Assembly (NCBI GenBank): GCA_041946735.1
Contig: JBHGAY010000005.1
Span: 1-64,000 of the forward strand
Source: Candidatus Eiseniibacteriota bacterium
GTDB taxonomy: Bacteria > Eisenbacteria > RBG-16-71-46 > CAIMUX01 > VGJL01
Reading direction: 5' to 3'
DNA: 64,000 bases
Numbering within the stretch: position 1 is the stretch's first letter; each line of letters begins with the position of its first letter. Below are positions 38,559 to 44,182 of the stretch, in pieces. Under the pieces are notes generated by a model. It was not told where the DNA came from and made no database searches. It was given only the letters and a program-made list of their open reading frames with translations. The translations under genes and the position numbers were made by a program.

Positions 38559-39428
38559 ATGCCGATGCAGCCGATTTCCGTCCCGCAGGCCGAGGCGCAA
38601 GGCGCCTCGCGCCGTGGCACCCGATCCCGCCGCCTCCTGAAGGAGATTCTGGTCGTCGTCGCGTGCCTCATCGCGGTCACCTCGGCGATCGAGCTGGCCG
38701 GCTGGGACCTCGCGCTGTCCCGGGCGTTCTACGATCCCGCCGCGAACCCGGCCTGGTGGGGACGCGAACGCCAGCCGCTCCAGTTCCTCTACGACTACGG
38801 CACGTGGCCGGCGCTTGCCGTCGGGATCGGCTCGCTCTTTCTCCTTCCCGCGACATGGTTCGTGCGGCGCTTGCGTCCCCACCGGAGGAGCTTCGCGCTC
38901 TTAGCCCTCGTCCTCGCTCTCGGTCCCGGACTGGTCGTCAACACCGCGCTCAAGGATCACTGGGGACGGCCGCGTCCGCGCGAGCTGCGCGAGTTCGGCG
39001 GCACTGCCGCATACCAGGGGGTCGAGGATCCTGGCACTCCCGGTAAGGGGAAGGCGTTCCCGAGCGGACATGCGTCCATGGGGTTCTACTTCGTGAGCTT
39101 CTACATTCTGTGGCGCGACGACGCCGCACGACGCGACCGCGCGGCGGGGCGGCGCGCGAGCGCGAGAGCGACGGCGGCTGCGACGGCGAGAGCGCAGGTC
39201 AAGGCGCGGGCGAGCGCGAGGGCGAGAGCGGCTTTGGCCTTCGGGATCCTGGCGGGCTGCGCCATCGGCCTACAGCGGATCGCCTCCGGCGGGCACTTCC
39301 TCACCGACGTGCTGTGGGCCGGCGGGATCGTCTATCTCGTGGCGCTGCTCGTGGACTTCGCGCTGCCCGCTACTCCGGAGCTCCGGCGTCGACCCAATCC
39401 CGGAACAGCGCTCGCTCGTCCTCGGTGA
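38559..39428 (+). CDS. PAP2 family membrane phosphatase (lipid A phosphatase-like)
   Basis: KDHWGRPRP, FPSGHAS, QRIASGGHFLTDV; start uncertain. Confidence 0.85.
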   Translation: MPMQPISVPQAEAQGASRRGTRSRRLLKEILVVVACLIAVTSAIELAGWDLALSRAFYDPAANPAWWGRERQPLQFLYDYGTWPALAVGIGSLFLLPATWFVRRLRPHRRSFALLALVLALGPGLVVNTALKDHWGRPRPRELREFGGTAAYQGVEDPGTPGKGKAFPSGHASMGFYFVSFYILWRDDAARRDRAAGRRASARATAAATARAQVKARASARARAALAFGILAGCAIGLQRIASGGHFLTDVLWAGGIVYLVALLVDFALPATPELRRRPNPGTALARPR

Positions 39429-39783
39429 GTCCTCCGCCGGGCGGCATCGCCCGCTGCTCCCAAACCTTCAGGCGGATCGCCGACCGGCGCGCATAGGCGC
39501 GGGCGTAGGTGTCGAGCGGCACCTGGGGATACATGATCCCGCCCGGTTGATGGCAGCTGCAGCTGCGCTCCATTACAGGGTGGACCTGCTCGGTGAAGGT
39601 CACGTCCCCGCCGTTGGGGTCCGGTTCCCCGTCGCCGGGCGGGGCGGTCAGCTTCTTCCCGCCATCCGCGCCGCACCCGGCAAGGCAGAGGACGAGTGCC
39701 GCGGCCGCGGTAGCGGCGATCGCCGCTGCCGAAGCCATCCGGCCGCGTGGACGCCGGCAACGCTCTCCTCCTGGCTGTCGCAT
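39370..39783 (-). CDS. Lipoprotein cytochrome c-like protein with contracted CSCH heme motif
   Basis: Lipobox LAGC; VTFTEQVHPVMERSCSCH...AMPP...LFRDWVDAGAPE resembles small monoheme domains; alternative start 39738. Confidence 0.7.
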   Translation of the reverse strand: MRQPGGERCRRPRGRMASAAAIAATAAAALVLCLAGCGADGGKKLTAPPGDGEPDPNGGDVTFTEQVHPVMERSCSCHQPGGIMYPQVPLDTYARAYARRSAIRLKVWEQRAMPPGGGLTEDERALFRDWVDAGAPE

Positions 39784-39828
39784 GCGCTGTCCCTTCCCTC
39801 GCACGCCTCTCTCTCGCGCTCCGCGCCG

Positions 39829-41019
39829 TCAGAACGACAGATAGAGCATTGCGATGAGATCGAAGACGTCGTGGTTCTCTCCGTAGCGCCGTCGCCCCTC
39901 GTCGTCGAAGCCGTAGATGCGCGTTCCCCGCGCGTAGGCTTCGAGACGCAGGAGCGGCAAGAGGTCCGATTCGATGCCGGCCGAGACGCGGTCGCGTCCC
40001 GTCTCGGCGAGGTCGAGATCGGGATCGAAGCGGTCGTATTTCGCGGTGAGGCTGATCGACGGGCGGATCTCATACCATCCCTGCACGAAGCCCGCCTCTC
40101 CGTCCACCGACGAGCCGTGGTCCGGATCGTTGGTCAGACGGTCGTACTCCGCGAGCAGGACCACCGGGCCCCGGTGAAGCTGTCCGAAGGCGCCGTAGCG
40201 GTACGTCCTGCCCCTCTCGCCGGTGTTCAGGCGGCCCGTATCGAAGAAGCCGGAGGCGCCGAAGCCGATCCAGTCGCGGAACCAGGCAGCGCGCCCGGTC
40301 ACCGCCTTCTGGTCGTTGTCATCGAACCCGGGCAGGCCGAGTCGCCCGTTCGTCAGCGCGAGATCGACTTGCACGTTCCGCGGAGTGAAGGTGACGGCCG
40401 CGCCCGTGTCGTACGCATTCGGGCCGAACCCCAGGGAGTCGCGCGTGAAGGTGCTGTGGTCTTCGACCTCGAGACCGAACGCCGGCTTGAACCGTCCCAC
40501 CTTGAGGCTGGCGGACAGCGGCAGCGAGCGGATCAGGCCGTAGGTCTCCGCGACCGCGCCCTGGTCGTTCGAGTAGACGAGGGTGAGACGGTCGTTGAGG
40601 TCGGCCGCCACATGGACCGTCGCCTCCATCAGGAAGAAGGAGGACCGGTCGGACGGCAACTGGTCTTCGGATTGCAGGTAGACCGAGCGCACGTCGGCGC
40701 CGAACCGCAGGCCGTCCGCGATGCGAGGATCGAGGACAGGCTCGCGTTCCTCCGCGGGCGTAATCGTGTGGCCGTTCCATGCGTAGAGGAAGCCCGTTTG
40801 TGCGCGAACCCCGCCGCCCGCCGGGTCGACGTGACAGCGGCCGCACGCCATTCCGGTCCGCGTCGCGTAGAGCGGCCGCGCCGAGGCGCGAGAGGCTCCG
40901 AGGAGCGCGAGCGCGGAGACGATGATGGCGAGCGCGATCGGGATCGGGATCGCGAGCGGAATCGCGAGCGGAATCTCCCGGGGGCCTCGCGAAGACTTCA
41001 CGGCTTCTCTCGCTCTCAC
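39829..41019 (-). CDS. Cytochrome c-porin fusion (Cyc2-like outer-membrane protein)
   Basis: Signal peptide, then RPLYATRTGMACGRCH, then beta-strand-rich body (LKVGRFKPAFG, LLAEYD, TAKYDRFDP) ending YLSF. Confidence 0.7.
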   Translation of the reverse strand: MRAREAVKSSRGPREIPLAIPLAIPIPIALAIIVSALALLGASRASARPLYATRTGMACGRCHVDPAGGGVRAQTGFLYAWNGHTITPAEEREPVLDPRIADGLRFGADVRSVYLQSEDQLPSDRSSFFLMEATVHVAADLNDRLTLVYSNDQGAVAETYGLIRSLPLSASLKVGRFKPAFGLEVEDHSTFTRDSLGFGPNAYDTGAAVTFTPRNVQVDLALTNGRLGLPGFDDNDQKAVTGRAAWFRDWIGFGASGFFDTGRLNTGERGRTYRYGAFGQLHRGPVVLLAEYDRLTNDPDHGSSVDGEAGFVQGWYEIRPSISLTAKYDRFDPDLDLAETGRDRVSAGIESDLLPLLRLEAYARGTRIYGFDDEGRRRYGENHDVFDLIAMLYLSF

Positions 41020-41423
41020 TTGCGGAAGACGGCGTGGCAGCCGGCGCAGGAGCTGACCGTCTCGCCGAGGAGCCGCCCGGCGCTCTCGCCGTTCTTCGCC
41101 GAGGCCGCGACGGCGAGCCGGCCGGCGCGGGCGCCGAGCGAATCGGCGTGGGCCTGGAAGTCCGCGATCTGATCGGTGCGCGTCGGCGGCGTCAGCGTGC
41201 GGACCATCTTCGCTTGCGCCGCGATCGACCTCGCGCTCGCCTCGGCCTTCGCCCAGTCGCTCGCGACGATCGATCCCATCGTGACGCGCAGGTCGCGGTT
41301 CAAGCCCTCCATCGCCTTCTCGAACGCGCTCTTGTTGTACGCCCCCTGGCCGGAAACGGCGCCGGCGGCGAGCACGACGGCGACCGCCACGGCGGCCGCG
41401 AGTAGGAAACGGAACTTCTTCAT
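41016..41423 (-). CDS. Periplasmic class II cytochrome c (c'/c556-like four-helix bundle)
   Basis: Signal peptide, helical body, C-terminal SCAGCHAVFRK. Confidence 0.85.
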   Translation of the reverse strand: MKKFRFLLAAAVAVAVVLAAGAVSGQGAYNKSAFEKAMEGLNRDLRVTMGSIVASDWAKAEASARSIAAQAKMVRTLTPPTRTDQIADFQAHADSLGARAGRLAVAASAKNGESAGRLLGETVSSCAGCHAVFRK

Positions 41424-41881
41424 CGCAGCACGACCTCTCCTTCCTCGTCCTTGAACCTATAGACGGCGATCAGGACCAGGAGGCACGAGAAGAGAATCCC
41501 GCTCACGAAACCTCCGCCCGCCGCAAAGGTGAGGAAGCGGAAGGTGGGGGAGACGTAGATGACGGCCCACCACGAGAGGACGTCGAGGATGCCCACGATC
41601 ACGGTCACGCCAAGGATCGTCCCGAACGCCTTGCCTCGTGCCGCGCCGAGGCGGCGGCCGAGGGTGTAGAGGACGAACCCCATCGTCGAGTAGCCGAAGA
41701 GGTGCACGTGCGTGATCACGAGCAGCCTGCCGATGTTGATGAAGGAGAAGTACTCCCCCACGCTCGGGTTGGCGATGCGCGTCTGGTAGAAGACCAGCGA
41801 GGTGCCTGCGACGGCGGCGAGACCGATCCCGAACAGGATCGGTATCGCCAGGAATCTCTCTCTCTGCGCGTTCCCTTGCAT
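41420..41881 (-). CDS. Four-TM inner-membrane protein with THVHLFG motif
   Basis: Four hydrophobic segments; HxH motif; its stop overlaps the cytochrome c' start (ATGA). Confidence 0.75.
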   Translation of the reverse strand: MQGNAQRERFLAIPILFGIGLAAVAGTSLVFYQTRIANPSVGEYFSFINIGRLLVITHVHLFGYSTMGFVLYTLGRRLGAARGKAFGTILGVTVIVGILDVLSWWAVIYVSPTFRFLTFAAGGGFVSGILFSCLLVLIAVYRFKDEEGEVVLR

Positions 41882-42023
41882 GCTTCCCCGCTCTCTCCTC
41901 GTGCTCCGCATGTCAGTCCTGAAAATCGCCACGATCCCCTCTTCGCCGGCCTGACGTCAACAGGATCGGTCGCCGCGGGTGTGGCTCTGATACGATCCAT
42001 CGTGCCTTTCCGGGGAGGGCGCA

Positions 42024-43118
42024 ATGCGGATCGCGATCATCAGTTCGTGGCCCAGGGACCCCGTGCGCGGGAGCGGGACCGGCCGCTACCTCATCGATCT
42101 GGAGGCGGCTCTCCGGCGCGCGGGCGCAACGGTCCTTGCCATCGGCGCCGATCTCGACCTGTCCGACTACGCCTCGTTCGTCGCCCGTCGAATGGAATGG
42201 AACGCCGCGCTTCCCGGCGACACGCGTGCGTGTTCGGCGGACATCCTTTTGGCGATCGACTTCGACGGCTTCGCCCTTCCGTCCGGCCGGGACGGGTTTC
42301 CTCCCAAAGTCGTCTCCCCGCAGGGACTGTTCGCGGAGATCGCTCCGACCGAGCCCGAGCCGTTCCGGTCTCTCCTTCTCGAGCAGGCGCGAGCCGAGAG
42401 GCGCAACGTGGCGGACGCCGCGCTCCTGATCGTCCCGAGCGCCTACGCGGCGGAGGCGGTGCAGCGCCACTACGAAGCGGGTGCGGAGCGGATCGAGATC
42501 ATCCCACACGGCTTCGATCTCGCGGAATGGCAGGAGCTGCTCCAGGGCGCTGATGCCCGTGCGCGGGACAAAGGCCCCACGATCCTCTCGGTCGCGCGCC
42601 TCTATCCGCGCAAGGGGATCGACACGCTTCTTCGCGCTTTCGCGGGCCTGCCGGCGCGGCATGCGGCGGCGCGGCTCCGAATCGTTGGAGACGGGATCGA
42701 GGCGCCACGGCTTCGCCGCCTCGCTGTCGATCTCGGACTCGAGGCGGGCGATCGCGTGCGCTTCGAGGGGGAGATCCCGACGCGGGCCGGTCTCGCCCAC
42801 CTGTTCCGCCAGGCCGATCTGTTCTGCCTGCCGTCGCTGCAGGAGAGCTTCGGGTTCGTGTTCCTCGAGGCGATGGCCGCGGGACTTCCCGTGGTGGCGG
42901 CCAGAGCCGGCGCTGCCGGGGAGGTGCTCGGCGAGGCGGGAACGCTGGTCGCGCCCGGTTCGGCCGAGGACCTGACGAGGGCGCTCGCGCGCCTGCTCGA
43001 CGACTCGGCGGAACGCACCCGGCTGGGCGAGCAGGGACGGCGGCGCGCGTCGCGCTTTCATTGGGAGGCCGCGGCGGCCGCCTACCTCGCCCGATTCGAG
43101 AGAGTCCTCGGCTCGTGA
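42024..43118 (+). CDS. Glycosyltransferase family 4 (GT-B)
   Basis: IVPSAYA, IIPHGFD, VARLYPRKG, PSLQESFGFVFLEAMAAGLPVV. Confidence 0.92.
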   Translation: MRIAIISSWPRDPVRGSGTGRYLIDLEAALRRAGATVLAIGADLDLSDYASFVARRMEWNAALPGDTRACSADILLAIDFDGFALPSGRDGFPPKVVSPQGLFAEIAPTEPEPFRSLLLEQARAERRNVADAALLIVPSAYAAEAVQRHYEAGAERIEIIPHGFDLAEWQELLQGADARARDKGPTILSVARLYPRKGIDTLLRAFAGLPARHAAARLRIVGDGIEAPRLRRLAVDLGLEAGDRVRFEGEIPTRAGLAHLFRQADLFCLPSLQESFGFVFLEAMAAGLPVVAARAGAAGEVLGEAGTLVAPGSAEDLTRALARLLDDSAERTRLGEQGRRRASRFHWEAAAAAYLARFERVLGS

Positions 43119-43143: not shown

Positions 43144-43188
43144 TTGACGATCCTCCCGCACTTTCCGTATTTTCCAAGAAATGCGCAA
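43144..43188 (+). promoter_or_regulatory. Putative promoter (TTGACG-N18-TATTTT) overlapped by an imperfect 12-2-12 inverted repeat, candidate ArsR operator
   Basis: TTCCGTATTTTC-CA-AGAAATGCGCAA at 43163-43188 (8/12 symmetric), AT-rich in a GC-rich genome, upstream of an ArsR-containing operon. Confidence 0.55.
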
Positions 43189-43210
43189 CACCAAGCGCTG
43201 GAGAGGCGAG

Positions 43211-43435
43211 ATGCTGACGTTCCTTCTGTTCCTCGTGGGGTACTTCGTCCTCACCTGGCTGGTCCTACCCCGTCTCGGAGTGCCGACCTGAGGCTCGCCT
43301 CTGGCCGGCCGCTCCGGTGGAGCGGCATGCAGCACCGAGAAGACCAGCCCCAAGGAGACGGCGGACCGGCCTGCGCTGCAGGTGCCGCCGGCCTCGAGCG
43401 CCGGCGACGCTGGGACGGCCGAAGGCCGGCGCTGA
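43211..43435 (+). CDS. Candidate small single-TM selenoprotein MLTFLLFLVGYFVLTWLVLPRLGVPT-U-GSPLAGRSGGAAC... (74 aa; 26 aa if UGA terminates)
   Basis: RBS GGAGAGG; TGA 43289-43291 followed by a GGU-loop hairpin; frame stays open to TGA 43433-35, 13 nt before the arsR start. Not in the ORF track. Confidence 0.65.
43308..43326 (+). promoter_or_regulatory. Candidate bacterial SECIS hairpin
   Basis: GCCGCTCC-GGT-GGAGCGGC perfect 8-bp stem; loop begins 25 nt after UGA. Confidence 0.6.
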
Positions 43436-43448
43436 AGGTCCAGCGGGG

Positions 43449-43793
43449 ATGAAGGCGGCGAAGGACTTCGCGGAGGCCGCCCGCCTGCTGAAGCTGCTCG
43501 GGCATCCGGCGCGGCTCAAGGTCGTGTGCGGGCTCCTCGGAGAGCCCGCGAGCCTATCGCGCATCTCGCGCGAGATCGGCGTGCCCGTCTCGACGCTGGC
43601 GCAGCATCTCTCGGTGCTGCGACGGGAGGGGATCCTGGAGGAGGAGAGGCGCGGGGTGGAGATCTTCTTCCGCGTGGCGGACCAGCGTGTGCCGGGGATT
43701 CTTCTGGCCCTCTGCGCTGCCGGTCCGTCCGGGCGGGGGCGCAGCCCAGGCGCTTCGCTCCCACGATGGAAGTGGCGCGAGCTGCACGGGTAG
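43449..43793 (+). CDS. ArsR/SmtB family regulator, two-Cys BigR/SqrR/YgaV-like
   Basis: LKLLGHPARLKVVC (helix 2 Cys), STLAQHLSVLR HTH, RRGVEIFFRV wing, ILLALC (helix 5 Cys). Confidence 0.85.
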   Translation: MKAAKDFAEAARLLKLLGHPARLKVVCGLLGEPASLSRISREIGVPVSTLAQHLSVLRREGILEEERRGVEIFFRVADQRVPGILLALCAAGPSGRGRSPGASLPRWKWRELHG

Positions 43794-43872: not shown

Positions 43873-44088
43873 ATGCCGTGGTACGAGTATGTCTGCCCGA
43901 GCTGCGGCGAGCGCTTCGATCTGATGCGCTCGATCGCCGATCGCGACAAGTCCGCTGCCTGTCCTGCCTGTGGAACGGAAGCGAAGCGGGCGCTGCCCCA
44001 CGTCCAGGCGGTCATCGCCGGGGGCGGAGCCGGCGCGCCGCCCAGCTGCGGAGCGAGTGGCGGTGGCTGAGGAGTGCCGCGCAGGTAG
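43873..44088 (+). CDS. FmdB family zinc-ribbon protein, possibly with near-terminal Sec (SCGASGGG-U-GVPRR); ends 44070 if UGA terminates
   Basis: MPWYEYVCPSCG...CPACG; Gly-rich tail with Cys; TGA 44068-70 followed by a hairpin; next in-frame stop TAG 44086-88. Confidence 0.8.
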
Positions 44089-44094
44089 CGGCGT
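44074..44094 (+). promoter_or_regulatory. Weak candidate SECIS hairpin after the FmdB UGA
   Basis: GCCGC-GCAGGTA-GCGGC stem-loop with GGU in the loop, extendable by two G-U pairs; spacing from UGA is short (GGU starts 14 nt downstream). Confidence 0.35.
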
Positions 44095-44182
44095 GACCGC
44101 TACGAAAGAAACCTGAAAGACGACGAAGGACCACCAGGCCGCCGGTCGGCGAAGGGCACCGAGGCCGCCGATCCACGCTCCG

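Follow-up and report, generated by a model that had tools for sequence, protein, structure and literature searches.

A predicted 74-residue membrane protein, encoded in the 64,000-nucleotide stretch of DNA analysed here (hereafter the window), is very probably a selenoprotein: we put the probability that its UGA codon 27 is read as selenocysteine (Sec) at roughly 0.95, based on comparison with related sequences. This is not a new discovery, as the family was already predicted in print (2008) to be made up of selenoproteins and was never characterised; nor is it a new kind of system, but one more member of a family that had been predicted and then neglected. The gene and its surroundings are summarised in Table 1.

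Table 1. Features in and around the predicted selenoprotein gene (window coordinates)
Feature	Position	Strand	Basis or remark
Lipoprotein with CSCH, divergent cluster	39370-39804	-
Beta-barrel-like protein with N-terminal heme motif, third in divergent cluster	39829-41019	-
Cytochrome c'-like protein, second in divergent cluster	41016-41423	-	PF01322
Integral membrane protein, first in divergent cluster	41420-41932	-
Sigma70-like promoter, TTGACG-18-TATTTT	43144..43173	+	Consensus match only
AT-rich imperfect inverted element over the -10 box, putative ArsR operator	43161..43183	+	Conserved in 6 loci
Ribosome-binding site, GGAGAGG	43201..43207	+	Read from sequence; 3 nt ahead of ATG 43211
Predicted 74-aa selenoprotein: helix 2-21, LPRLGVPT, Sec27, Cys40, unstructured polar tail	43211..43435	+	Sequence, family comparison, AlphaFold2
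In-frame TGA, codon 27, predicted Sec27	43289-43291	+	Site codons of 178 loci
Bacterial SECIS-type hairpin, GCCGCTCC-GGT-GGAGCGGC	43308-43326	+	8 perfect bp, loop GGU; overlaps codons G-R-S-G-G-A-A
Cys40 (U+13), candidate partner of Sec27	43328-43330	+	Later Cys in TGA loci of the family
ArsR/SmtB-family repressor, Cys27 and Cys89	43449..43793	+	NF033788, 61.7 bits (cut-off 55)
FmdB-family zinc ribbon (TIGR02605), candidate second selenoprotein	43873..44088	+	60.8 bits (cut-off 31.3)
In-frame TGA of the zinc ribbon, candidate Sec66	44068-44070	+	Followed by five residues and TAG
Hairpin GTAGCGG-CGTGA-CCGCTAC, candidate SECIS	44085..44103	+	7 bp, loop 21 nt past the zinc-ribbon TGA

An earlier note on this DNA had described a ribosome-binding site and start codon, one hydrophobic stretch and LPRLGVPT directly before a TGA, and all of these coordinates check against the sequence. 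Codons 1-26 from ATG 43211 encode the hydrophobic stretch and the motif, a combination that, followed by a stop, occurs only once in the whole genome. The next in-frame stop is the TGA at 43433-43435, so that read-through would yield 74 aa with a Cys at U+13; the frame ends 13 nt upstream of the arsR ATG (43449), within the 157-nt gap that separates the first TGA from arsR, again as had been described. The same note had regarded the gene as the filler of an intra-operon gap, which is not how it now appears. The TTGACG-18-TATTTT site upstream of it was found once (0.0 expected in shuffles), and the upstream TTGAC together with the downstream element is retained in all six same-family loci examined, suggesting that the gene is likely the first of its own unit. 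A GT4 glycosyltransferase gene (42024-43118) lies directly upstream and is retained in four same-family loci; no link between it and the selenoprotein was found.

Searched with profiles made from relatives, 44 of 206 genomes of the host's own phylum gave a match. So did 59 of 201 genomes from the class to which a planctomycete record belongs, 87 of 201 from the phylum that includes a Desulfobacteraceae record (Desulfobacterota) and 25 of 151 from the class of one Chloroflexota record. The underlying DNA was examined for all 63 planctomycete matches, for 50 of 91 in Desulfobacterota, for 30 of 33 in Chloroflexota and for most matches in the own phylum (36 distinct sites from 45 good matches). 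Of the 178 distinct loci obtained in this way, 153 have TGA as the site codon, 23 have TGC or TGT, one pseudogene has TGG and the last has an extra residue ahead of its TGA. Neither TAA nor TAG occurs at any of them, which is what the earlier note had proposed to test. One of the Cys loci (L027, Sphaerisporangium) is probably a false positive, which leaves 22 clear Cys homologues. Matches that end just before the site, and so might have concealed a TAA or TAG (14 Desulfobacterota loci and one other, G219), have TGA in every case where the motif is present. Six divergent loci with a TGA nearby and without the standard motif (L192, L193, L196-L199) were excluded from the 178; four of these, all from Desulfobacterota (L196-L199), carry a helix followed by C-P-T-TGA (CxxU) in place of LPxLG, and L192 and L193 are other variants.

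Among the best 120 hits in the protein database, 104 stop exactly at the Thr before the site, bearing out what the earlier note had said of short hypothetical proteins truncated at a Sec codon, and 16 go on with Cys. Pfam and NCBIfam gave no hit for the 74-aa protein and nothing better than E 0.028 for 19 family members, and NCBIfam none for six Cys forms. A search of the ESM Atlas with one Cys form returned a single unnamed cluster of 123 members at 0.88, which we treat as a lead only. In one sulfur-gene region (L101, G356:C11) both forms occur, the TGA copy on one strand and the Cys copy on the other, at a distance of about 10 kb.

Could the UGA simply be an ordinary stop, so that a membrane peptide of 26 aa is made and the hairpin signals pausing or processing? 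In favour of this, TGA ends more long ORFs in the host genome than either other stop codon does, and across the family the sequence past the second Cys shows no conservation. Nevertheless, TGA accounts for only 1015 of 1670 long-ORF stops (61%), so that codon bias alone does not explain the site; and the absence of the other two stops, the Cys at the exact codon in clear homologues and the conservation of coding sequence and Cys behind the TGA all argue against termination. The distribution of Cys forms, which track the loss of selA and have mostly lost the hairpin, adds to these objections, and we regard termination at this codon as very improbable.

The hairpin downstream of UGA27 had been claimed to be perfect, with a GGU loop 25 nt downstream, and it is: 24 nt separate the UGA from the loop, whose first base is the 25th. 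According to the legend of Fig. 2A in PMC13188914, the bacterial SECIS consensus comprises a loop of 3-9 nt with G in its first two positions, a stem of 4-16 bp, a spacing of 16-37 nt and an energy below -7.5 kcal/mol, and the hairpin agrees with every one of these terms. At 68% GC, however, it barely exceeds chance (z -0.9 for 52 nt and -2.1 for 36 nt; p 0.043 against synonymous recodings), and since the hairpin of the window is weak by itself, its evidential weight comes from comparison across the family. A perfect stem of at least 5 bp with a G-led loop 16-37 nt downstream follows the site in 140 of 152 TGA loci, against 8 of 23 Cys loci. Likewise, hairpins reach p <0.05 against synonymous recodings in 41 of 73 TGA loci (a set that omits L017 and L079) and in three of 23 Cys loci. 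A G-led loop at 16-26 nt from the UGA is found in 72 of 73 loci, the stems being wholly different between clades: stem sequences and encoded residues vary and pairing registers shift, whereas loop and distance stay constant. The covariation that had been suggested as a check did not rise clearly over shuffled controls: one pair shows a two-sided change among 10 close kin, and 31 of 500 shuffles scored equally high. Two Cys forms (L028 and L031) retain a Chloroflexota-type hairpin, and the genome of the former (G207) has selA and selB.

The host genome (95% complete) carries selA, selB and selD over cut-offs together with a tRNA-Sec, and its selD itself contains one in-frame TGA. In the own phylum selA is present in 183 of 206 genomes, too common to be informative for linkage; it is found in 39 of 43 family-bearing genomes, and selB and tRNA-Sec are present in three of the remaining four. 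In the fourth (G037, 86% complete) selA, selB and tRNA-Sec did not exceed cut-offs, and selD has an in-frame TGA. The planctomycete class, in which selA is over cut-off in only 104 of 201 genomes, thus provides a real test of linkage. There, selA occurs in 42 of 44 genomes with the TGA form (in one it is split and under cut-off) and in one of 14 with Cys forms only, being absent from the other 13 (Fisher p 4e-10, a value overstated because kin are not independent, as are the other p-values given here). Among the named Cys-form records, one of six (of seven records) has selA or selB over cut-off. On a quick tree made from 87 short rows, six changes between Sec and Cys are required, at least four of them forced by strong branches. 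The existence of Cys homologues, whose lack the earlier note had named as a refutation, is established by the 22 loci and the 16 database proteins, and together with the selA link and the lack of other stops it supports the Sec read-through that the note had proposed.

The expectation that TGA forms would be confined to Sec-encoding genomes holds for the 42 planctomycetes and breaks down in two genomes, G345 (one 6.7-Mb contig) and G308, in which selA, selB and tRNA-Sec were not found and the site TGA is kept. These two would also be compatible with a true stop. G308, however, is sister to a genome with the Cys form (G316; support 96), and a further genome, G264, holds a pseudogene, as expected for relics of Sec loss. 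The three loci look alike and differ in state: in G316 (L076) Cys occupies the site and the hairpin is intact, in G308 (L106) the TGA form has a mismatched hairpin, and in G264 (L121) the site codon is TGG with an early stop; none of the three genomes has selA or selB. We infer that these states may be relics of recent Sec loss. In the near-closed genome G345 (L093/L128) an intact-looking TGA gene lies within a cluster of MBL-rhodanese, TauE and SQR genes, and only a 4-bp core of its hairpin is left.

For the 74-aa protein AlphaFold2 predicts one helix (residues 2-21) and a low-confidence tail, with a mean pLDDT of 63.5. The basic flank of a membrane helix generally lies on the cytoplasmic side (the positive-inside rule). 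Across 145 sequences the first six residues contain on average 0.73 acidic residues, and the twelve residues before the site contain 1.43 basic and 0 acidic ones; this pattern, acidic ahead of the helix and basic behind it, suggests an N-out, tail-in topology, with Sec predicted at the cytoplasmic face of the membrane. A later Cys is found in 148 of 153 TGA loci, so that the U...C pair envisaged in the earlier note is indeed usual. It is not universal, as the five TGA loci devoid of a later Cys indicate that the pair is not required, and its spacing is mostly U+5 (113 loci) rather than the U+13 of the window (7 loci), with a range of 4 to 21. Thiol/selenol redox chemistry is likely for the predicted protein.

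Gene order (selenoprotein gene, arsR, zinc ribbon) is preserved in 12 close-kin loci. The nearest solved relatives of the neighbouring ArsR are BigR, YgaV, PagR and HlyU; it scores 56.6 bits against the BigR equivalog NF040642, short of the cut-off of 155. Its Cys27 aligns with a Cys of BigR, YgaV and HlyU, Cys89 falls one residue past the aligned stretch (the BigR pair is Cys42 and Cys108), and both are retained in all five kin ArsRs compared. No wider ArsR regulon was found in the genome, the second-best operator match lying inside an infA-like coding frame. The third gene of this ArsR operon is likely to encode another selenoprotein. Its end, a Cys, a short spacer and TGA followed by a tail of 3-5 residues, recurs in 13 of 13 close-kin loci, and 11 of 12 kin loci have hairpins of at least 6 bp at 16-22 nt with no U tract; the hairpin at 44085..44103 likewise has no U tract behind it. 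Four more distant FmdB genes have stems of 2-4 bp only. Three other distant FmdB genes (L241-L243) end in C...TGA with a tail of 1-2 residues and hairpins of 6-8 bp, and probably share the habit of a C-terminal Sec. In the divergent cluster at 39370-41932 (- strand), the first and third members adjoin the operon in three to four kin loci.

An ArsR/SmtB gene beside a Sec/Cys pair invites the idea that at the membrane this pair binds soft metals or metalloids (Cu, Hg, As, Zn) and passes them to an exporter, ArsR being the metal sensor. The zinc-ribbon partner has a Cys-rich tail, 14 of about 146 loci have RND efflux genes no more than 3 kb away, and a P-type ATPase is found near L028, all of which would fit. 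The repressor itself, however, is closest to proteins that are not metal sensors (29 bits against CmtR, 57 against BigR), the spacing between Sec and Cys is loose for a metal site, and the commonest neighbour across loci is a rhodanese (43 loci). We consider metal transfer unlikely.

Neighbours in other phyla point instead towards sulfur. Of the planctomycete loci, 38 of 64 have a gene for rhodanese, MBL-rhodanese, DsrE, TauE, an SQR-like protein or YeeE no more than 1.5 kb away, and so do 14 of 30 in Chloroflexota; in the own phylum this is true of only one of 36 loci, and in Desulfobacterota of none of 43. The background is 4 of 1593 windows of the host genome, which is not a planctomycete background. 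None of these sulfur-handling enzymes is found in the host operon. Judging from the neighbours, there is an even chance that the membrane-tethered protein carries or senses sulfane sulfur (persulfide).

A Sec-containing protein might also act more generally, as a thiol-disulfide relay or a redox-switched subunit of a membrane complex (an RND pump, CcdA/DsbD or cytochrome bd) with no tie to sulfane sulfur. Among labelled neighbours in Desulfobacterota thioredoxin is the most frequent (8 of 43 loci have it within 3 kb), DsbD_TM-thioredoxin and DUF6132 genes flank one locus (L030), cytochrome bd-like genes occur near five Cys loci, and beyond planctomycetes and Chloroflexota most loci share no neighbour, which would be easier to understand on such terms. 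Conversely, no one membrane partner is kept across phyla, and the enrichment of sulfur genes is strong in two of them. To us such a general role appears possible though doubtful, if less so than metal transfer.

If the protein does carry or sense sulfane sulfur, the following course of events can be proposed. The gene's own promoter would drive its expression together with that of a BigR-like ArsR repressor, which has two cysteines, and of the zinc-ribbon protein, which probably ends in Sec as well. SelB would bind the GGU-loop hairpin, deliver Sec-tRNA and insert Sec27, whose selenol, judging from the charge distribution, would be held just under the membrane. There it could receive sulfur from partners of the rhodanese, persulfide-dioxygenase or SQR type, after which Cys40 would resolve the Sec27-bound sulfur and thioredoxin would reset the protein, steps suggested by the gene neighbours; the protein would in this way serve the sulfide-detoxifying enzymes found beside many homologues. 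A further and more tentative step would be to regard all three genes as one selenium-based reactive-sulfur module under a BigR-like repressor, in which the membrane U-x12-C protein and the soluble zinc-ribbon C-x6-U protein, both truncated in annotation, would jointly pass or sense sulfane sulfur. Were such a module real, the membrane protein would be an unrecognised Sec/Cys sulfur carrier that connects rhodanese, dioxygenase and SQR enzymes with exporters of the TauE/YeeE type in several bacterial phyla.

The family is widespread, yet databases cut its proteins at about 29 residues and hold no Pfam or NCBIfam model for it. Because of the Sec/Cys pairs and the selA link, the prediction of 2008, made when Cys homologues were lacking, has become a solid candidate, and the gene context supplies a first testable function. 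The 74-aa protein would be about the smallest testable bacterial membrane selenoprotein, and the loci display several stages of Sec loss: a TGA relic, a Cys form with intact hairpin and a pseudogene. What appears to be new, from the sequences compared, is that the family has Cys homologues and is linked to selA, that this member has a long U-x12-C linker, and that its ArsR operon holds two selenoproteins (the second a candidate), although other selenoprotein catalogues may include this family or the FmdB form with a C-terminal Sec.

Among known systems, the closest is the family itself, which GOS 2008 lists among 'previously described' families with 15 sequences in 9 samples and which Data S1 of deep-Sep names six times among 'known' selenoproteins. 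By a reading of motifs rather than a computed score, the 74-aa protein belongs to it, sharing with the published examples the hydrophobic N-terminus, LP[RK][LM]G[VI]xT directly before U, a Cys few residues past U and a short polar tail. In those examples the Cys stands at U+5 or U+6, whereas here it stands at U+13 with the hairpin inside the longer linker, and GOS reported no Cys homologues, against the 22 clear loci and 16 database proteins counted above. The passages on the family give no function, topology or gene context; none of the 119 entries in Table 1 of a 2026 review (PMC13188914) could be matched to it, nor was it found in the main text of PMC5029168, whose supplement may list it. 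DUF6132 (PF19628), the neighbour at L030, is likewise a small protein of the membrane in which a helix is followed by a motif resembling C-x-S-G-x-C, but it has two helices and no LPxLG, and kinship was rejected (profile probability 1.5%, 8 columns).

According to PMC5823870, BigR operons that include rhodanese/dioxygenase and TauE detoxify sulfide. Like these BigR/SqrR-type operons, the host operon has an ArsR with two cysteines, and the planctomycete and Chloroflexota loci also share rhodanese, MBL-rhodanese, TauE, SQR-like proteins and YeeE; the host operon differs in being devoid of those enzymes and in having an ArsR below the BigR cut-off, and the passages of PMC5823870 on such operons describe no selenoprotein. 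Finally, the third gene of the host operon has the same zinc-ribbon domain as the FmdB-family selenoprotein (TIGR02605) of GOS 2008. In the published form Sec lies in the first CxxC (UxxU), whereas the host zinc ribbon has its four Cys intact and its candidate Sec near the C-terminus.
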